From positions 15,088 through 79,087 of the forward strand of contig JAGOQI010000002.1 of NCBI GenBank assembly GCA_017991515.1: a stretch of 64,000 bases of DNA, in the 5' to 3' direction. Positions 10,307 to 62,179 of the stretch are shown here, piece after piece. The stretch comes from Minisyncoccota bacterium. Its GTDB lineage: Bacteria > Patescibacteriota > Minisyncoccia > Phycocordibacterales > UBA9973. The stretch's first letter is position 1; each line of letters opens with the position of its first letter. The notes beneath the pieces are model-generated. The model worked only from the letters and a program-made list of their open reading frames with translations. It had not been told where the DNA came from and did not search any database. Position numbers and translations under genes: made by a program.

Positions 10307-10469
10307 AGCCGTTACCTCCCAAATAGGGAGTCGTTTTTTGAAAATTGTATAGAGAACGCGAGTTCTCAAAGTCTATTTTATGTAATTTGAGTATTTTCAA
10401 ACTTGGGCAAAAGTTTTTCTTTTGCCTCATTCTAGTCGGCATTTTATTTATAAAAGCCAACTTATATTA

Positions 10470-12008
<1,539 letters not shown>

Positions 12009-12189
12009 TTGAGATTGTTCTGATTGTACCTCAGGTACACAGGATTGATACGGTTGATCATTGTTCTGCAAAGAATAATGGTGTTGTGGTAAGCGACGTA
12101 ATGCTTACTCCTTGCGCCAAGGTTATGGCGCAAAAATCCCTGGTGTGTATTCTATAGAGCACATCATGGTAGAATGAGGCAATAGAAAG

Positions 12190-15907: not shown

Positions 15908-15954
15908 AGTTATTTTAATAATTAATATATAGTGTTTTTGTTGTACCGAATGAT

Positions 15955-16210
15955 CGCGCTTACTCATAAGAGTATGTGAGGAAAGTCCGAACACATAACG
16001 ATTTAATTCGTACAGGTAGTGGGTAATACCCATCGTGGGCAACCATAGGGCTGCGAACAGTGACGAATCCCTTTAGTGGGAGTGAAACGGCTAAATGCCT
16101 ATCCGTGTGCAAGACCGTGCTGAGAAATCAGAGTGTCGCTTGAGGATGACAGTAATATCATTCCCAGATAAATGATCACTAGAACAGAACTCGGCTTATG
16201 AGTACAACAA
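15955..16210 (+). ncRNA. rnpB: RNase P RNA (compact bacterial type)
   Basis: P4 5' strand GAGGAAAGTCCG near the start and P4 3' strand ACAGAACTCGGCTTA near the end; P1 pairing TACTCATAAG/CTTATGAGTA; CCATAGGGCTGCGAACAG and GTGAAACGG motifs; terminator directly downstream. Confidence 0.7.
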
Positions 16211-16213
16211 ATA

Positions 16214-16243
16214 TCAAAAAAATCCGCACAACGCGGATTTTTT
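16214..16243 (+). terminator. rho-independent terminator after rnpB
   Basis: AAAAAAATCCGCACAACGCGGATTTTTTT. Confidence 0.75.
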
Positions 16244-54655: not shown

Positions 54656-54684
54656 TTGAAAATAGGGAATTAGTATTGTAGAAT
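54656..54684 (+). promoter_or_regulatory. sigma70 promoter of the tRNA-Leu / tRNA-Lys cluster
   Basis: TTGAAA, 17-nt spacer, TAGAAT, about 20 nt upstream of tRNA-Leu. Confidence 0.55.
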
Positions 54685-54705: not shown

Positions 54706-54787
54706 GCCCGGGTGGCGAAATTGGTAGACGCGTCAGTCTTAGGAACTGATATCGCAAGATGTGAAGGTTCAAGTCCTTTCCCGGGCA
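54706..54787 (+). tRNA. tRNA-Leu (anticodon TAG)
   Basis: GCCCGGG acceptor, anticodon arm TCAGT-CTTAGGA-ACTGA, long variable arm, T arm GGTTCAAGTCC. Confidence 0.85.
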
Positions 54788-54804
54788 CACTGTGTGGAAT
54801 CCAG

Positions 54805-54877
54805 GCGCTTATAGCTCAGCTGGTAGAGCAGCTCCCTCTTAAGGAGACGGTCGCAGGTTCAAATCCTGCTAAGCGCA
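54805..54877 (+). tRNA. tRNA-Lys (anticodon CTT)
   Basis: GCGCTTATAGCTCAGCTGGTAGAGCAGCTCCCTCTTAAGGAGACGGTCGCAGGTTCAAATCCTGCTAAGCGCA folds as a cloverleaf. Confidence 0.85.
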
Positions 54878-54895
54878 CAACACAAAGTGTTGTCG

Positions 54896-55090
54896 CGCTT
54901 AGAGCAAGACAACTGCTTGTCTTGCGTCAGGATTTGAAAGGCACAGCCATGTCGCTTGCGACAGGCGAGCCGGGGTCGCGAGTACTTATGAATGAAATGA
55001 ATTAGTAACTCGTGACCGAATCCTGATTTTTTTGACTGAAAAAGTTTTAGGTGAAGGAAAATCCTGATATTCATGCGGTCACAAATCACT
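54896..55090 (+). repeat. structured non-coding element, copy 1 (paralog of 61930-62115), immediately 3' of tRNA-Lys
   Basis: Shares blocks with copy 2: GAGCAA..CAACTGCTT..TTGCGTCAGGATTTGAA, GGAAAATCCTG and ACTTAGTAACTCGTGACCGAATCCTG; the hairpin GCAAGACA-ACTGCT-TGTCTTGC covaries with copy 2. Confidence 0.6.
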
Positions 55091-55177
55091 AAGTATTTTA
55101 TTTCGTAAAACTCATAAAATACAAAGTGTTCGCGACCCCGTCTCGTCTGTTTCGCTTCGCTCAACATGACTGTGACT

Positions 55178-55229
55178 GGCACCACACATAAAAAACCAGG
55201 AGCAGTCCTGGTTTTTTATGTGTGGTGCC
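55178..55229. terminator. 23-bp perfect hairpin between convergent tRNA transcription units
   Basis: GGCACCACACATAAAAAACCAGG-AGCAGT-CCTGGTTTTTTATGTGTGGTGCC; the right arm overlaps the 3' end of tRNA-Leu(TAA). Confidence 0.55.
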
Positions 55230-55309
55230 CGGAGCGAGACTCGAACTCGCACGCCTATAACGGCTGAGGATTTTAAGTCCTCTATGTCTACCATTCCATC
55301 ATCCGGGCA
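55224..55309 (-). tRNA. tRNA-Leu (anticodon TAA), CCA encoded
   Basis: Reverse complement GCCCGGATGATGGAATGGTAGACATAGAGGACTTAAAATCCTCAGCCGTTATAGGCGTGCGAGTTCGAGTCTCGCTCCGGGCACCA. Confidence 0.85.
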
Positions 55310-55332
55310 TATTTATTTTTCAACTTACCTAG

Positions 55333-55404
55333 AGACCTGGGCGAGAATCGAACTCGCGTATAGTTCTTTTGCAGAGAACCGCCTTACCACTTGGCCACCA
55401 GGTC
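55333..55404 (-). tRNA. tRNA-Cys (anticodon GCA)
   Basis: Reverse complement GACCTGGTGGCCAAGTGGTAAGGCGGTTCTCTGCAAAAGAACTATACGCGAGTTCGATTCTCGCCCAGGTCT. Confidence 0.85.
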
Positions 55405-55406
55405 TT

Positions 55407-55739
55407 TTATTTTTCTCCTTCGTAAAGGAGTGCGTCTATATTTTGACGGGCTTTCTCTCCTTTGTCAATTTGAACATCAACAAAAGGGATATTTATCATA
55501 TTTACACCTTTTTTGATAACAGTTCGCAAATCATTTCTTTTTCTTTTCAAAAAGTTTATAGCTGAGTCTTCACCGCTTTCAGGGAGAACAGATATAAAGA
55601 TAGTAGCATTGCGGCCTCTTTCTGTAACCTCAACTCTAGTAACAGAAATAAGAGCAGTTTTATTGCTTTCTCTTTCTATAAATTGCGCTGCGATTTGTGC
55701 AATCTGTACTTCTATTTTTTCTTGTTTTCCTTTATCCAT
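55407..55739 (-). CDS. rbfA: ribosome-binding factor A
   Basis: KH-like RbfA pattern (RVEVTERGRNATIFISV...); lies immediately downstream of infB, as in the conserved infB-rbfA order. Confidence 0.7.
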   Translation of the reverse strand: MDKGKQEKIEVQIAQIAAQFIERESNKTALISVTRVEVTERGRNATIFISVLPESGEDSAINFLKRKRNDLRTVIKKGVNMINIPFVDVQIDKGEKARQNIDALLYEGEK

Positions 55740-55740
55740 A

Positions 55741-57228
55741 TTATTTTGTGACCATTATAAATGCTTCCAAAATATCTCCAACTGCGATCTCTTTTTTACA
55801 TTCGATCATCAGTCCACATTCTCCCTCAGAAACTTCTTTTTGTTTTTGTCTAGCCTGTTGAAGTTCTACAACCTTTCCTTCAGCTAATGGAAATTCTCGT
55901 CTTATAACAGAAACTTTTGCTCCATGGGTAATTGTGCCACTTTCAACTCTAGCTCCCAATACTTGGCGCTCTCTGGTATGAGAGAAAGTTTTTAATACCT
56001 TGGCAGTACCTATAACCTCACGAGTCTCTATGCGGGGTCGTCTCTTCTCTAGTTCTTCTTCTAAATATTCTGTCAGTTTGTAGATAATATCGAAGCTTTG
56101 GATATTTGCTTCTACTTTTTCATTTATGTCTTTTGCTGATTTATCTAAAACAGAGTTAAATCCAAGTATGATTGTATTTTTATCAGATTGAGCAAGTTTG
56201 ATATCTGCTTCTCCAATAGAACCAATACCGCGACCAATGATTTTAATATGAAGACCTTCTATAGAAATCTTATTTATCTCTTTTTCTATAGCCTCAAGCG
56301 TTCCCTGAACATCAGTTTTAATAATAAGAGGTACGACTCTACATCCATCAGCAACTGCAACTGCGTCTTTGCCACCATTTTTCTTTGTAGAAAATTCTGC
56401 TATATGTTTTTCAGCATCTTTCTTTTTATCAAAGACCACTATTTCAGCACCTACTTCAGGGAGTTTATCAAAACCGATAAGGTGAACTGATGTCCCAGCC
56501 GGCACACTTTCTATAGTTTTACCTAAGAAGTTCTCCATGATTCTTGTAGTGGTAAAAGAGTCTCCGGCAACTACAAATTGACTTCTCTTTAGTGTTCCAT
56601 TTTTTATTATCAAAGTTGCAGCAATACCTCTTTTTGGTTCTAAATGGCTTTCGATAACAACACCTTCAGCCATAGCACCAGCATCAGAAGAGAGTTCAGC
56701 AAGATCAGCGACAAGTATAATAGTTTCGAGTAAGTCCGGGATACCAGTACCTTTTGTAGCTGAAATAGGAACCCAAGGAATATCGCCACCAAAACCTTCA
56801 ACAAGTATCTCGCTCTCTGCAAGAGAAAGTTTCGTTTTTTCAATATTGGATTCTGGTAGATCAATTTTATTTATAGCAACTATAAAAGGTATTTTAGCTT
56901 CTCGGATAGTTTTCAAGGCTTCTATTGTTTGAGCTTTCACACCATCTTCTGCAGAAACAACTAAAATAGCAATATCGGCAGCGCTGGCACCTCGTTCTCT
57001 CATACCAGTAAATGCAGCGTGACCTGGAGTATCCAAAAAAGTAATAACACGAGTTTCCTTTTGGTAGGGAACAGAAATTTCATAAGCACTTAAGTGTTGA
57101 GTGATACCACCTGCTTCTCCTCCTACTACATTTGTTTTACGAATGTAGTCTAGTAGTGTACTTTTACCATGGTCTATATGTCCCATGATAGCTACTACTG
57201 GTGGTCTTTGTGTTGAAGGTGTTTTCAT
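55741..57228 (-). CDS. infB: translation initiation factor IF-2 (short form lacking N-terminal domains)
   Basis: G domain VVAIMGHIDHGKSTLLD, DTPGHAAF and NKID motifs, C-terminal beta-barrels; 495 aa. Confidence 0.9.
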   Translation of the reverse strand: MKTPSTQRPPVVAIMGHIDHGKSTLLDYIRKTNVVGGEAGGITQHLSAYEISVPYQKETRVITFLDTPGHAAFTGMRERGASAADIAILVVSAEDGVKAQTIEALKTIREAKIPFIVAINKIDLPESNIEKTKLSLAESEILVEGFGGDIPWVPISATKGTGIPDLLETIILVADLAELSSDAGAMAEGVVIESHLEPKRGIAATLIIKNGTLKRSQFVVAGDSFTTTRIMENFLGKTIESVPAGTSVHLIGFDKLPEVGAEIVVFDKKKDAEKHIAEFSTKKNGGKDAVAVADGCRVVPLIIKTDVQGTLEAIEKEINKISIEGLHIKIIGRGIGSIGEADIKLAQSDKNTIILGFNSVLDKSAKDINEKVEANIQSFDIIYKLTEYLEEELEKRRPRIETREVIGTAKVLKTFSHTRERQVLGARVESGTITHGAKVSVIRREFPLAEGKVVELQQARQKQKEVSEGECGLMIECKKEIAVGDILEAFIMVTK

Positions 57229-57230
57229 AT

Positions 57231-57701
57231 TTATAAACTCTTTTTTGATGTTTCTAATGCGAGAGATTCTTCTGGAGTGAGTGTTGGTAGAGGAGTGCCT
57301 CGACTAACTGGTTTGGCATAAACCCCAACATGATTGCGGTTTGTGATAACAGATAAAATAAATCCGTCACCTGATTCGTCTATTAAGGCAGAAGCGAAGC
57401 TTTGGTTACCGCCGTTGTCTTCATAAGCATCGTAACGAACAAGAGAATAACCCCTAATACTTTTTTTGATACGACTGTCTATGATTTCGAGAGCTTCTTT
57501 GTGAGCATTTAAAGTTTGGTCTACTTCAAAATTTTTCTTTGTGAGCCACTCAATATGTGCTTCTAGGGAAGCGCCATCTTTGCCGGCAGTAAACGAACGA
57601 AGCTTTTTATGGAGTATTACAAGTGCGACTGTTAGTATAATAATAAAGAGCGACATAGTCGCTAAAGTAATTAGAAGCCACAGTGGTATACTTTGTACCA
57701 T
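57231..57701 (-). CDS. hypothetical single-pass membrane protein
   Basis: N-terminal transmembrane helix then a soluble domain; stop directly abuts the infB start. Confidence 0.5.
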   Translation of the reverse strand: MVQSIPLWLLITLATMSLFIIILTVALVILHKKLRSFTAGKDGASLEAHIEWLTKKNFEVDQTLNAHKEALEIIDSRIKKSIRGYSLVRYDAYEDNGGNQSFASALIDESGDGFILSVITNRNHVGVYAKPVSRGTPLPTLTPEESLALETSKKSL

Positions 57702-57726
57702 AGTAGCGTATTATACTGATTTTATC

Positions 57727-58926
57727 ATGTTTTTCAAGCCTTTTAAGAATCTATACAGAAATAACAGAATATATCTTGACTATGCTTCAAGTACTCCAGA
57801 AGACGCTAAAATGCTCGCTTCTTTTTCGCGTCTCGATAAAAGAGTGTTGAAAGCTAATCCTAGTGCCTTACACAAAGAAGGTGTAGCTTTAAAAAAGATT
57901 CTTTCAGACACAAGATCACTTGTCGCCAAAACTTTGACAGTCCAAAATAATGAAATAATTTTTACTAGCAATGCGACAGAAAGTGATAACTTGGCAATAT
58001 TAGGATTTATCAGAAATAAAATAGATGTTGGTATAAATCCAAAAGAAATAGCTCTTTATATTAGTCCTTTTGAACATTCAGCAATTGAGTCTTTGATAAA
58101 TAATATTGATAAAGGTATAAGAGTTTGCAAACTGGTTCAAGAAGATGGATATGTTTTGCCAAATAGTATAAATATCCCCGAAGAAACAAAAGTGGTTTTG
58201 ATATCTGTTATGTTTGTTCAAAATGAAATAGGAACAACTCAAAATATAAAAGAAATATCCAAGAGAATCAGAAAGCTTCGCAAGGAATATCCAGAAAAAA
58301 CTATAGTCTTTCATACCGATGCAACCCAAGCGCCACTTTATTATGATTTAAATGTTGCTAGACTCGGAGTAGATATGATGACCCTCGGTGCTACAAAACT
58401 CTATACACCAAAAGGTGTAGGAATGCTTTATAAAAAAAGATCTATAAATCTCTCTCCAATATTTTATGGTGGAGGACAAGAAGGAGGACTACGACCAGGG
58501 ACTGAGCCAGTAGAACTTATTCATAAATTTGCCAACGCACTTTCATATGCTCAATATAGGTATGAAGATGCTTATAATAAGACCAAGGTTTTACAAAATT
58601 ATTTTGAAAATAAAATCAAAAAAGAACTTCCCCAAATCACTATCACAGGAGGTGGTGATAGATCTCCACATATAACACACTTAACAATACCTGATATAGA
58701 CAGTGAACTTTTAGTGATAGAGCTCGATGCGCGAGGTATAGCCGTGTCCTCCAAGAGTGCTTGTAAGAACGAAGATACTGATGAATCTGGAATTATGGAA
58801 CTTTTATATCCAAATCAAAATCTAGGAGCTATTCGTATTTCTTATGGAAGGAAGACTACCAAGAGGGAATTAATCAAGACAATAAAAGCTATAAAAAATG
58901 TTTTAGAAAAATACAAAAATATTTAA
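57727..58926 (+). CDS. cysteine desulfurase / class V aminotransferase (IscS/NifS-like)
   Basis: IYLDYASSTP N-terminal motif and a PLP-fold; start trimmed to MFFKPFK. Confidence 0.8.
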   Translation: MFFKPFKNLYRNNRIYLDYASSTPEDAKMLASFSRLDKRVLKANPSALHKEGVALKKILSDTRSLVAKTLTVQNNEIIFTSNATESDNLAILGFIRNKIDVGINPKEIALYISPFEHSAIESLINNIDKGIRVCKLVQEDGYVLPNSINIPEETKVVLISVMFVQNEIGTTQNIKEISKRIRKLRKEYPEKTIVFHTDATQAPLYYDLNVARLGVDMMTLGATKLYTPKGVGMLYKKRSINLSPIFYGGGQEGGLRPGTEPVELIHKFANALSYAQYRYEDAYNKTKVLQNYFENKIKKELPQITITGGGDRSPHITHLTIPDIDSELLVIELDARGIAVSSKSACKNEDTDESGIMELLYPNQNLGAIRISYGRKTTKRELIKTIKAIKNVLEKYKNI

Positions 58927-59050
58927 TTTTAAAAACTAGAAAAAAAGGTGGTTTTATTGTATAGTAGCTCTATACCGAGAGACTTTTGACTGTTTTTGCC
59001 GCACTTCTGAAATCCTTTTAATTTACGAGCTTTTTAATATATTACTCACT

Positions 59051-61762
59051 ATGAATCCTCCACTAAACCAATTCACAACCAAAGCCAAAGAGGTTATCAA
59101 GCGAGCACATGAACTAGCTATAGAGCGAGGTCAAAACAATGTAAGCACAATACATCTTTTGGCGGCTTTGTTAGTTCAAGAAGAATCAAATGTTATAACA
59201 CTCTTAGATAGAATGGATATCGATAGTATTCATTTGACTGATTCTGTGCTCGAAGCGATAGAAGGTGTCGAAAATCAAAGTACTGTTGCTCCGTCATATC
59301 AAATGTTTTTAACTGCTGATTTGGCTCAGACTATAGAACAGTCTTTGAAAGTAGCAACAGAAATAAAAGATACATTTGTTTCAACAGAACATCTTTTTGT
59401 GGCGCTTTTAGATACTAGTAACGACACTTCAGAAATTTTAGCAAAATTTAAAATAAATAGAGCTTCATTACTTGAGGCTATTTCAGAATTTCGAAATAAT
59501 AAAAATCCTGACACATCTAATAGTAAAAAGTTTCGTTTAATTACAAAATTTACTCGCAATCTAACAAAGCTTGCTCGTGAAGATAAACTTGACCCAGTAA
59601 TAGGTAGAGATGTTGAGATTATGCGTATCATGCAGATACTTTCTCGTCGAACAAAAAATAATCCAGTACTTCTCGGCGAACCAGGAACAGGCAAAACTGC
59701 TGTCGTTGAAGGCTTGGCTATACGCATAGTAAAAGGTGATGTTTCTGAAAGTTTGAAAGATAAGGAATTGGTTTCGCTTGATATTGGGAGCTTGTTAGCT
59801 GGTACAAAATATAGAGGAGAATTTGAGGAGAGATTAAAAGGGATACTTAAAGAGGTAGAAAAAGCAGAAGGTAAAATAATTCTTTTTATAGATGAGATAC
59901 ACACTATAGTAGGAGCTGGAAGTGCAGAAGGTTCTATGGATATGTCCAATATGCTAAAACCTGCTCTTTCAAGAGGAGAAATAAAGGCTATTGGTGCGAC
60001 AACGCTGAAAGAATATCAAAAGTATATAGAAAAAGATCCAGCTTTAGCTCGAAGATTTCAACCTGTTTCTATTGATGAACCTTCTGTACAAGATACAGTT
60101 GCGATACTTCGAGGGTTGAAAGAAAAATATGAAATCTATCACAGTGTACATATTACAGATGACGCTATACTTGCAGCTGTAGAACTTTCTGCGCGTTATA
60201 TTACAAACAGACAACTTCCTGATAAAGCAGTAGATCTTCTTGATGAAGCTTGTTCAGCACTTCGTATGGAACTTGAAAATAAGCCTGCCACTTTAGATGA
60301 AGCACATCGCAAAATAATGCGACTTGAAATAGAACTTGAAGCTATCAAGAAAGACATTGATAAAGACTTTGAAAAAAAGCATGGCCTTAAAACTGCTAAA
60401 ACTAGAATAAAAGATATTGAAGAAGAAATAGCGAATATTCAAGAGAAGACTAAGGAACTTGAAATGAAATGGAAAAATGAAAAAGAACTTCTTCAAGAGA
60501 TTGCAAAAATTCGTAAAGATCAAGAAACACTTCGTCTTGAAGCCGAAGGTGCAGAGCAAAGAGCGGACCTCGGTAGGGCGGCAGAAATTCGTTATGGCCA
60601 TTTACCATTACTCCAAAAAGATTTGACTAGTAAAATGCTTAAACTTAAAAAACTTCAAAAAACTCGTCGGGTTTTGAAAGAAGAAATTACTGAAGAAGAT
60701 ATTGCCTCAGTGGTTGCTCGTTGGACAGGAGTACCAGTAAATAAAATGCTTGAAGAGGAGAGAGAGAAGCTTTCAAATATGGAGGCAGAACTCAACAAGA
60801 GAGTAGTAGGACAAGATTCAGCCATAGAGAGAGTGGCACATGTTTTGCGTCGAGCTCGTGCAGGTATTAGTGATCCAAATCGTCCAATAGGTTCATTTAT
60901 TTTCTTAGGTCCTACAGGTGTGGGTAAAACAGAGCTAACAAAAACTTTAGCGAAATTTATGTTCAATGATGATAAAGCTCTTATTCGTGTGGATATGAGT
61001 GAATATATGGAGAGACATGCAACTTCTAAACTTATAGGTTCACCACCAGGATATGTTGGGCATGATGAAGCAGGACAATTGACTGAAGCAGTGAGACACC
61101 GTCCATACAGTGTTGTACTTTTTGATGAAATAGAAAAAGCTCATCCAGAAGTATTTAATATACTCCTCCAAGTTTTAGATGACGGTGTTTTGACAGATGG
61201 AAAGGGTAGAAAGGTTAACTTCAAAAATACTATTATCATCATGACAAGTAATATTGGAAGTCAGTTTATCCAAAAAATGGAATCAATAGGTTTTCACAAC
61301 AATACAGAAACAGTTCAATATTCTCAAATGAAAGAAAAAGTAGAAGGAGCACTAAAAGACCATTTTAAACCAGAATTTCTCAACCGTATTGACGAAGTCG
61401 TAGTATTTGATATTCTGTCTGAGCCTTCTATAGCCGAGATAGTAAATATTAGAACAAAAAATATTTTGGCTAGACTACAAGAAAAAGGAATAACTGTTGC
61501 TTTAGAAGAGTCAGTGCTTTCATATCTTGCGAAGGTCGGCTATAATCCTCAGTATGGGGCTCGACCCCTAAATCGTTTGATTCAAACAAAAGTTTTGAAT
61601 CCGATTGCTGAGAGGATCATCAGTCAGAAAATTACTACTGGTGACTTTGTTACTGTTTCTCTTATTAATGATGAAATTGTCATTAATTTAAAAAATAAAA
61701 ATAAGAAACAGATTAGTTCTTTAAAGGGCCGAGCGACTCGCGGAGTAAAATCTTCGCAGTAA
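59051..61762 (+). CDS. clpB: ATP-dependent chaperone ClpB
   Basis: Clp N domain; two AAA+ modules (GEPGTGKTA and [11 protein letters not shown]); long middle coiled-coil typical of ClpB. Confidence 0.9.
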
Positions 61763-61800
61763 TAGGCCAAAAAAATGCAGCGCTGCGTTTGCAGCGGCAA

Positions 61801-61883
61801 GCGTCGGTGGTAGAGTGGTCAATTACATCAGACTGTAAATCTGACGCCTTCGGGCTACGCAGGTTCAAATCCTGCCCGGCGCA
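61801..61883 (+). tRNA. tRNA-Tyr (anticodon GTA) with a long variable arm
   Basis: GCGTCGG acceptor, anticodon arm TCAGA-CTGTAAA-TCTGA, variable arm CGCCTTCGGGCTAC, T arm GCAGGTTCAAATCCTGC. Confidence 0.85.
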
Positions 61884-61929
61884 CAAAAACAAAAACACTT
61901 CACTTCATTGTGAGGTGTTTTTGTTTTAT

Positions 61930-62115
61930 GTCTCGCCGAGGAGCAAACCAACTGCTTGGTTTGCGTCAGGATTTGAACGACGGAGCTATGTTTCTTTATC
62001 AAAAGAAACAAGCGAGTCGGTGCCCAGACAAAACTGTTGCAACAGTTTTAGTCGAGGGAAAATCCTGCCAAATAAAATACTTAGTAATTCGTGACCAAAT
62101 CCTGCATGTGAGCAA
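61930..62115 (+). repeat. structured non-coding element, copy 2 (paralog of 54896-55090), 3' of tRNA-Tyr
   Basis: Hairpin GCAAACCA-ACTGCT-TGGTTTGC (two compensatory pairs relative to copy 1), then GCGTCAGGATTTGAA, GGAAAATCCTG and ACTTAGTAATTCGTGACCAAATCCTG. Confidence 0.6.
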
Positions 62116-62179
62116 CTGATAACCTTTTGGTTGAAGTAAAATCCTTCTTATAAAAAATCTAAATGCTATACTTACTACA

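Follow-up and report, generated by a model that had tools for sequence, protein, structure and literature searches.

The RtT repeats of Escherichia coli (Rfam family RF00391, also called rttR or 178-bp repeats, at tyrT-tyrV) were long treated, for decades, as an enterobacterial curiosity of unknown function. They lie directly 3' of tRNA genes, sometimes in tandem; the unit starts with GGGGAAGGAU, the complement of tRNA-Tyr AUCCUUCCCC, and ends with AUCCUUCCCCCACCACCA, the last ~19 nucleotides (nt) of the tRNA including ACCA, and in the Rfam consensus these ends pair (GgGaaGGAU / AUCCuuCcC) with hairpins inside. The RNAs were first described as released from tRNA operon transcripts and members of the family were later seen on Northern blots beside other tRNA genes in Pasteurellaceae (PMC4986893), although the function of the released RNA is still unknown (PMC4986893; bioRxiv 10.1101/2024.07.17.603846). 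Here we describe elements of comparable architecture in a stretch of 64,000 nt from a Minisyncoccota bacterium (assembly GCA_017991515.1, contig JAGOQI010000002.1, positions 15,088 to 79,087 of the forward strand), referred to below as the window and numbered from its first nucleotide. Two of them follow the genes for tRNA-Lys and tRNA-Tyr, a third follows a tRNA-Leu gene, and together with many relatives they form a family of structured tRNA-gene-linked elements that is real, is of the RtT kind and was previously unclassified.

Other described systems share some of these features. At the attL and attR sites of tRNA-targeting integrative elements, duplication of the tRNA 3' end restores a complete tRNA and leaves a displaced 3' fragment downstream; remnants accumulate, and sites are filled in some relatives and empty in others. 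All of this recurs in the new family, but its insert is only ~150-200 nt, carries neither integrase nor cargo, and holds an inverted copy of the target together with a covarying fold. REPIN/REP elements, mobilised by RAYT transposases, and miniature inverted-repeat transposable elements (MITEs) are likewise short extragenic hairpin repeats without an open reading frame (ORF), present several times per genome and presumably dependent on functions in trans. In the new family, however, the terminal arms vary with the local tRNA instead of being constant, the elements occur strictly at tRNA 3' ends, the usual target-site duplication is not seen and no RAYT-like partner was identified. Stable RNAs such as 3'ETS-leuZ and mascRNA also derive from tRNA-adjacent or tRNA-like sequence, being released by RNase P, RNase E or RNase Z. 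They differ from the new family in having no inverted and direct copies of a tRNA tail and no conserved three-way junction, and in being neither repeated nor mobile.

Two Related Blocks and Their Relatives

A preliminary description of the window had reported paralogous structured elements after tRNA-Lys (copy 1) and tRNA-Tyr (copy 2), and had seen evidence of selection on structure in two differences between the hairpins of the two blocks, here named P2. In the sequence each of these changes, G-C to A-U and A-U to C-G, has its exact compensation in the opposite strand of the stem. The two blocks read GCGCTTAG-A-GCAAGACA-ACTGCT-TGTCTTGC-GT-CAGGATTTGAA at 54895-54938 (P2 block onward at 54904-54938) and ...GCAAACCA-ACTGCT-TGGTTTGC-GT-CAGGATTTGAA at 61943-61977. 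With up to two mismatches allowed, the 15-mer GCGTCAGGATTTGAA occurs in the 64 kb just at 54924 and 61963, and two matches were obtained in none of 100 shuffles. Aligned over ~200 nt, the intergenic regions are 68% identical and show more compensated changes in a second hairpin, and their folds have z-scores of -4.9 and -7.8 against shuffled sequence. Two features had been missed: the 5' flanks of the blocks are the reverse complement of the adjacent tRNA 3' end, and a further copy, copy 3, lies on the minus strand.

Rfam and ARAGORN together found six tRNAs, one 16S rRNA and one RNase P RNA in the window. Over the two block regions no Rfam family was matched at the gathering threshold or at E up to 10, the tRNAs and chance microRNA-type matches apart; six loci with the best homologous copies, searched at E up to 1, gave the same outcome, and the family is absent from Rfam 15. 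The earlier statement that the elements match no known RNA family is true for Rfam models, but in architecture they agree with the RtT repeats found in the E. coli tyrT operon.

The preliminary description had named a lack of further homologues as part of what would count against it; many relatives were found. An exact-pattern scan of one genome per species returned 23 loci, of which about 16 are true relatives, from Patescibacteria (4), Elusimicrobiota (11) and Hydrogenedentota (1). A Simkaniaceae genome in the same scan carries a partial copy, and the remaining loci, which fall in coding sequence, are chance matches. A gapped pattern applied to metagenome contigs yielded 75 further loci, most of them true, and most family sequences come from metagenome-assembled genomes (MAGs) or metagenomes. 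The search patterns were built on CAGGATTTGAA, ACTGCT and GBGAG. A covariance model, R1, was built from a curated MAFFT alignment of 17 units (A2) and gave 90 matches in 99 sources, 77 of them distinct and none in the chance loci; its E-values are rough, the model calibration having been shortened. Both reported properties, paralogy and selection on structure, were borne out by this larger data set. Neither search pattern was matched in 2.9 million viral contigs, and a phage origin was rejected on that ground.

In a Simkaniaceae MAG (L005, 4875-5560) a lone 5' module, consisting of P2 and GTCAGGATTTGAA, follows tRNA-Leu(UAA) with an arm that does not match that tRNA. Where the P4/P5 core would be expected there is instead a gene pair that, judged from its translation, looks of nucleotidyltransferase/HEPN type.

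Anatomy, Fold and Covariation

A unit consists, from 5' to 3', of the tRNA, a short spacer or terminator-like hairpin, an arm, P2, the remainder of the arm, P4, GG, P5 and a tail repeat. The arm as a whole is the reverse complement of the last ~20 nt of the tRNA, a stretch that takes in some of the T loop and the 3' strands of both the T stem and the acceptor. Its first 8 nt, before P2, correspond to tRNA position 65 and the acceptor 3' strand, and P2, a cassette of ~25 nt with the form AGC-stem-ACUGCU-stem-GCGU, splits the arm between the partners of positions 64 and 65. The P2 loop is usually ACUGCU. The remainder of the arm, CAGGAUUUGAA, is the exact reverse complement of the T-loop/T-stem sequence UUCAAAUCCUG. 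P4 is a GGC/GCC helix with a conserved internal loop (GGAGCG and CGCGA strands) and a variable hairpin, and P5, which follows the GG, is a long irregular hairpin ending in GUGACC or, in another subtype, GAGGGA. The 3' end of full-length units is made up of AAAUCCUG, the acceptor 3' strand, the discriminator and CCA, and is thus a direct repeat of the tRNA tail, so that the two ends of the unit can pair as P1 (acceptor-like) and P3 (T-stem-like and beyond). In the consensus, P1 and P3 mimic the acceptor/T-arm helix of a tRNA and close a three-way junction in place of the T loop.

RNAalifold predicted 33 consensus pairs from alignment A2, 23 of them with compensatory changes. In this alignment, which was not fitted to the model, 93.8% of the cells are paired, as against 72% in shuffled controls and 30-42% when partners are slid; 24 of the pairs change on both sides, and the covariation score was reached by none of 500 shuffles. 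A model-fitted alignment, A3, gave similar values, with 93.2% of cells paired (69% when shuffled) and changes on both sides in 31 of the 33 pairs. Among the paired cells G-U/U-G combinations number 69 and A-C/C-A combinations 32, one P5 pair being G-U in 29 sequences, and this excess assigns the fold to the tRNA-sense strand.

Two tertiary or catalytic features were considered and set aside. Loop-loop pairing between ACUGCU of P2 and CAGCAG of P4 is contradicted by variants with other P2 loops (L017b, L025 and L074), which keep CAGCAG, and no covariation was seen by eye between the two. For the junction and the P4 internal loop, inspection by eye did not reveal the consensus features of a hammerhead or kink-turn, and no ribozyme family was matched.

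Correspondence to the Adjoining tRNA

For 59 of the 77 distinct units a tRNA gene lies directly upstream on the same strand within the locus. Nine amino-acid types are represented: Val predominates (34), followed by Met/fMet (7), Lys (5), Arg (4), Leu (4) and Tyr (2), with single cases of Ser, Ala and Trp. In about half of the units the gap between tRNA and element is 1-16 nt, without a terminator, and in the rest it is 23-54 nt and contains a hairpin. When the 8-nt arm was compared with its own tRNA (n=56), it matched at 8/8 positions in 18 units, 7/8 in 14 and 6/8 in 14, whereas against tRNAs of different anticodon the mean best match was 4.9 and 8/8 was attained in 0.3% of comparisons.

Several details bear on how the arm is specified. 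Beside a tRNA-Tyr with a U-G pair in the acceptor stem, the arm is the Watson-Crick complement of the 3' strand and does not follow the tRNA's 5' strand. At L031 the arm, GGACTCGAA, follows the unusual T loop TTCGAGT of the tRNA-Trp beside it, and the downstream repeat does not. At L001, L042, L028 and copy 3 the complementarity extends beyond CCA into the flank and the arm of the terminator, which indicates that the template of the arm is the gene or primary transcript and not the mature tRNA. The same extension rules out a retrovirus-like primer-binding-site model, in which the arm would be copied from mature tRNA. Direct repeats of the 3' part of the tRNA, including ACCA, occur at offsets of ~130-220 nt in more than 30 loci and are partial in the window. 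Minimum-free-energy folds of the precursor pair the arm with the tRNA 3' strand.

The elements are not themselves tRNAs. They match no Rfam model of the tRNA clan, lack the D and anticodon arms of a cloverleaf and have a large insert where the T loop would be. ARAGORN found no transfer-messenger RNA (tmRNA), two-piece tmRNA or minus-strand tRNA. The likeness of GGAUUUGAA to what we take to be the tmRNA 5' region, GGAUUCGAC, is accounted for by the fact that both complement a T loop.

Copies and Remnants in the Window

The window holds two core-intact copies without an acceptor repeat, one degenerate copy and three remnants (Table 1). Elements occur at three of its four tRNA operon ends, the tRNA-Asn end having none. 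tRNA-Lys(CUU) is the final gene of a tRNA-Leu(UAG)/tRNA-Lys operon and tRNA-Leu(UAA) that of a convergent tRNA-Cys/tRNA-Leu operon. Promoter-like sites are present for both, at 54656-54684 (+) and 55468-55440 (-), respectively, and a promoter scan found none between tRNAs and elements in the window.

The arm of copy 1 has as its template the tRNA-Lys 3' end TTCAAATCCTGCTAAGCGC, and the hairpin in the intervening spacer is the tip of a long palindrome made up of that 3' end and the arm. The 3' ends of the window copies vary: copy 1 ends with AATCCTGA followed by U7 and copy 2 with AAATCCTGCC, of which the final CC represents just the first 2 nt of the acceptor repeat, and copy 3 has nothing, while most full-length relatives end in the tRNA copy with CCA. 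The preliminary description had inferred that an upstream motif pairs with downstream sequence to close a domain of about 100 nt. The domain of copy 1 spans about 85 nt and closes with TCAGGATTT/AATCCTGA; the second motif that had been assigned to it, GGAAAATCCTG (55057-55067), lies outside it, in a separate remnant. Similarly, the domain of copy 2 closes at AAATCCTG, and ACTTAGTAATTCGTGACCAAATCCTGC is a remnant of a second subtype.

The head of copy 3 is a 23-bp hairpin at 55178-55229 in which, as had been noticed earlier, the ACTGCT loop recurs, here on the minus strand. Its 5' arm includes the tRNA-Leu end ...GGCACCA and its 3' arm the complement TGGTGCC (55184-55178). This hairpin is terminator-like, and a separate one precedes copy 2; in size the conserved core far exceeds a terminator. 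In copy 1, P3 with its U7 run was not scored by a simple terminator scan, and the copy, ending in that run, probably doubles as the operon terminator. By eye, the remnant next to copy 1 resembles the P5 and P3 3' strands of copy 2, L012 and L103. The most distal remnant after copy 2 sits 34 nt 5' of the ddl start codon.

Table 1. Positions of tRNA genes, element copies, their parts and remnants in the window
Feature	Position	Strand	Basis or remark
tRNA-Lys(CUU)	54805..54878	+	ARAGORN; Rfam tRNA 71.2 bits
Spacer hairpin ACAACAC-AAA-GTGTTGT, no U-run after it	54877..54893	+	sequence; fold
Copy 1, subtype A, after tRNA-Lys	54895..55033	+	R1 match 54895-55036, 120.7 bits; in seed alignment; folds
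Copy 1 arm GCGCTTAG	54895-54902	+	reverse complement of tRNA-Lys N65 and acceptor 3' strand; 8/8 match
Copy 1 P2 hairpin	54904-54925, loop 54912-54917	+	
Copy 1 P3	54927-54935 (TCAGGATTT) with 55019-55026 (AATCCTGA)	+	closes domain of ~85 nt
Copy 1 P4	54940-54971	+	
Copy 1 P5	54974-55017	+	
Copy 1 U7 run, replacing acceptor repeat after AATCCTGA	55027-55033	+	
Subtype-B-like 3' remnant GACTGAAAAAGTTTTAGGTGAAGGAAAATCCTGA, contains GGAAAATCCTG	55034..55067	+	aligns with 62114-62146
Copy 3, degenerate, after tRNA-Leu(UAA)	55077..55222	-	R1 match 55223-55057, 32.5 bits, E ~1e-6; outside seed
Copy 3 P4 and P5	55176-55077	-	P3 absent
tRNA-Leu(UAA)	55223..55308	-	ARAGORN
tRNA-Tyr(GUA)	61801..61884	+	ARAGORN; Rfam
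Terminator-like hairpin then U-run, between tRNA-Tyr and copy 2	61885..61927	+	fold; terminator scan 61901-61917
Copy 2, subtype B, after tRNA-Tyr	61932..62069	+	R1 match 61934-62078, 120 bits; in seed alignment
Copy 2 arm CTCGCCGAGG	61932-61941	+	imperfect complement of tRNA-Tyr 3' end; 6/8 match
Copy 2 P2	61943-61964, loop 61951-61956	+	
Copy 2 P3	61966-61974 with 62060-62067 (AAATCCTG)	+	closes domain
Copy 2 P4	61979-62018	+	
Copy 2 P5 (second P5 subtype)	62021-62059	+	
Subtype-A 3' remnant ACTTAGTAATTCGTGACCAAATCCTGC (P5 and P3 3' strands)	62079..62105	+	matches 3' ends of copy 1, L001, L002
Second remnant after copy 2, subtype-B-like	62114..62146	+	aligns with 55034-55067

Subtypes and Turnover

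Subtypes do not follow tRNA identity and switch between tRNAs with the arm still matched. Copy 1, beside tRNA-Lys, is 86-89% identical to the L001 unit, which follows tRNA-Tyr, and to that of L002, whose arm is of tRNA-Tyr type and whose contig starts before the tRNA. Copy 2, beside tRNA-Tyr, is ~80% identical to units beside tRNA-Tyr (L103) and tRNA-Lys(UUU) (L012), and copy 3, beside tRNA-Leu, is 77% identical over 142 nt, the ACUGCU-loop terminator included, to the L104 unit beside tRNA-Tyr.

The orthologous ClpB-tRNA-Tyr-X-Ddl locus was compared in five relatives (L100-L104). L100 and L102 have tRNA-Tyr with a terminator only and no element, L101 has just a 20-nt inverted T-arm copy, L103 carries the subtype of copy 2 (R1, 83 bits) and L104 that of copy 3 together with remnants. 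Copy 2 and its L103 orthologue are 79% identical with compensated changes in P2 and P5, which argues for constraint in place. Between tRNA-Tyr and ddl gene callers put a short hydrophobic ORF in L101 (3249-3434; 61 aa) and L102 (3267-3494; 75 aa), and copy 2 with its remnants fills this space in the window.

Tandem units were found at L004, L013, L022, L023, L026 and L090, and isolated 5' modules followed by a terminator at L022 and L023. Snap-back synthesis was rejected as the source of the L022 array since its second spacer is a direct copy, not an inverted one. At L028 CCA is missing from the upstream tRNA-Leu copy and retained in the displaced repeat. When 111 ORFs lying up to 5 kb downstream of elements were scanned against Pfam, the top families included no integrase, recombinase, transposase or reverse transcriptase; the ORFs belong to unrelated housekeeping families and lie on either strand.

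Larger or different insertions at tRNA 3' ends were also observed. At L017 (2035-3900) an island of ~1.8 kb, with a Fic-family gene (HPFxDGNGR motif in the sequence) and no integrase seen, is bounded on one side by an intact tRNA-fMet with its element and on the other by a 45-nt 3' half-copy with a second, diverged element. At L043 (2835-3165; same contig as L057) a small ORF, by eye of GIY-YIG type (MFFTYILYSLKSGKYYIGSTNNLLRRFHEH...), directly follows tRNA-Asp(GUC) and is itself followed by a partial tRNA duplicate with D-loop-like and T-arm/acceptor parts, another kind of insertion at a tRNA 3' end.

Relationship to RtT RNAs

The new family resembles RtT in its position directly 3' of tRNA genes, in its occasional tandem arrangement and in starting with a complement of the tRNA, while most of its full-length units, though not the window copies, end like those of RtT in a copy of the tRNA tail; the pairing of the RtT ends around internal hairpins is matched by P1 and P3. 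The word GAGCGAAGCGA is also shared with several members. It or near variants were seen in hairpin loops at L013b, L019, L045 and L006b, at 55150-55160 (-) in the window and in the E. coli RtT units of L099. GCGAAGC is an unusually stable DNA mini-hairpin.

The two differ in that the new family has the P2 cassette within the arm and the P4/P5 three-way-junction core, often has a terminator hairpin before the unit, serves at least nine tRNA types, and has its hosts in Patescibacteria, Elusimicrobiota and Hydrogenedentota, not in Gammaproteobacteria. The RF00391 model recovered four E. coli units at 133-137 bits and gave no match in the window at gathering, in the two block regions at E up to 10 or in the six best-copy loci at E up to 1, and R1 scored RtT at 2.4 bits only. 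Given the lack of cross-matches, the P2 cassette, the different core and the different hosts, we class the family as working like RtT and not as a member of RF00391.

Function and Origin

The reading that we favour, with middling confidence, is that the unit is a trailer RNA of tRNA operons which tRNA-processing enzymes excise and which also behaves as a selfish repeat in its turnover. In its favour are the covarying fold with its strand bias, the placement after tRNA genes with matched arms and repeated tails, the lack of promoter-like sites between tRNAs and elements in the window, the short terminator-free gaps in about half of the family, the precedent of RtT and the compensated differences between copy 2 and its L103 orthologue. 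Without a promoter of its own, the unit would be transcribed together with the tRNA as a 3' trailer, either directly or, where a hairpin intervenes, by read-through, and would fold on the tRNA-sense strand. Where the tail repeat is present, RNase P might cut on the 5' side of the mimic, with 3' trimming at the repeated end, and by analogy with rtT RNA the product is predicted to be a stable tRNA-like RNA of ~150 nt. As selfish repeats, units would come and go at tRNA 3' ends, replace one another and pile up there. The core would move between tRNA genes and the arm would each time be templated anew by the local gene, for which fold-back copying, template switching and correction of the palindrome are candidate routes. 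Of the three possibilities raised in the preliminary description, a tRNA-associated small RNA family fits best, and a processing element and att-like remnants are each partly apt, given that tRNA 3' ends are directly repeated and that elements turn over at orthologous sites.

Several observations weigh against a processed trailer RNA. The window copies lack the 3' acceptor strand, and P1 is often of 4-6 bp only with mismatched outer positions, where a strict substrate of RNase P or CCA-adding enzyme would need more. In many members, including copy 2, a strong terminator-like hairpin with a U-run intervenes between tRNA and element, so that transcription of the element there needs read-through. 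G-T wobbles form in single-stranded DNA too and the strand asymmetry is no proof of RNA; the occurrence of both empty and filled orthologous sites implies that the element is dispensable; and, as loci were retrieved by pattern, the three blocks used for searching are necessarily conserved and over-represented among them. With no cross-match between RF00391 and R1, the resemblance to RtT could also be convergent.

The main rival, to which we give a lower but appreciable probability, is a mobile DNA element that is non-autonomous and possibly acts in single-stranded form, like REPIN or integron attC, any RNA made from it being incidental. The folded core and its palindrome with the tRNA 3' end would then be the recombination substrate of an enzyme encoded elsewhere, and integration in the T-loop region would rebuild the tRNA and displace the old 3' end downstream. 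This best explains the direct repeats, element-borne terminators, remnants and empty sites: tRNA 3' ends are repeated directly on both flanks of the unit; the unit brings its own terminator, one with an ACUGCU loop being common to copy 3 and L104; orthologous sites before ddl are empty, hold the inverted T-arm only or carry other subtypes; and tandem arrays and stacked 3' remnants occur, with subtypes independent of tRNA identity. The displaced CCA of L028, and the L017 Fic island between two tRNA-fMet 3' copies with an element after each, are also in line with it. On the other hand, enzymes of mobility are not enriched in the 111 downstream ORFs, viral contigs lack both patterns and a double-stranded circle of ~200 bp is physically awkward. 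A unit with a fixed arm would break the tRNA on changing tRNA type, yet arms are matched at nine types, and compensated changes in paralogues and orthologues suggest constraint on residents, not decay. A more speculative proposal, which we regard as rather doubtful, is that of a self-propagating element that encodes no protein and has as its target the 3' ends of tRNA genes of whatever type. Its arms would arise when the local gene or primary transcript is copied by fold-back or template switching, and its three-way junction would recruit a host enzyme of tRNA processing or of replication and repair, RtT being a distant example of the same principle. If true, bacteria would harbour a general class of parasites or symbionts of tRNA tails that has so far gone unrecognised.

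It is unlikely that the element is simply a cis-acting part of the tRNA transcription unit, its arm pairing with the acceptor 3' strand of the precursor and its core serving as terminator, roadblock or processing platform, so as to define where the tRNA transcript ends or to insulate downstream genes, whether or not a separate RNA results. A cis role in 3'-end formation nevertheless stays a live rival because the minimum-free-energy precursor folds do pair the arm with the tRNA 3' strand; moreover, the arm complements the upstream tRNA itself, as at L031, where arm and repeat part company, copy 1 offers a helix and U7 with no other terminator, an element stands after the last tRNA at three of the four operon ends in the window and the lone 5' modules of L022 and L023 have a terminator after them. 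However, sequestering the acceptor strand would oppose tRNA folding, the close relatives L100 and L102 manage without an element at the same locus, a plain terminator is often already in place upstream, the elaborate conserved three-way junction exceeds what termination needs and the downstream genes are unrelated and on either strand. The view that the elements are non-functional debris, left by the decay of old att sites and of duplicated tRNA 3' ends and alike by descent only, is already disfavoured and seems very improbable. The missing acceptor repeats and surrounding fragments in the window would suit it, as would the dispensability at orthologous sites, but not the doubly compensating changes in 24 to 31 of 33 pairs, pairing at ~93%, far above shuffled and slid controls, a fold kept across three phyla or the intact P2 to P5 of copies 1 and 2.

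A second family with the logic of RtT, with another strongly covarying core, in deep-branching and mostly uncultivated phyla and beside many tRNA types, suggests that tRNA-tail mimics are general. It supplies comparative data for experiments, since its helices are defined, conserved bases in the junction are identified and natural variants have or lack P1, P2 or P3, and it poses a mechanistic puzzle, namely how the arm stays matched to whichever tRNA adjoins the core. It also explains spurious ORFs and odd att-like repeats beside tRNA genes in Patescibacteria and Elusimicrobiota, and merits an Rfam entry.

Other Features of the Window

Mechanically called ORFs of 69-108 aa cross the tRNAs and elements at 54712-55005 (+), 54859-55185 (-), 61789-62094 (+) and 61910-62119 (+). 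They are almost certainly spurious, and automatic annotation could call them hypothetical proteins.

The 16S rRNA gene is complete at 10463-12009 (+), and no 23S or 5S rRNA was matched by Rfam at gathering elsewhere in the 64-kb window. This suggests that the rRNA genes are unlinked, a state often reported for Patescibacteria. The RNase P RNA, of class A, lies at 15938-16214 (+); with 277 nt matching model positions 1-367, at 116 bits against a gathering threshold of 100, it is a strongly reduced version.

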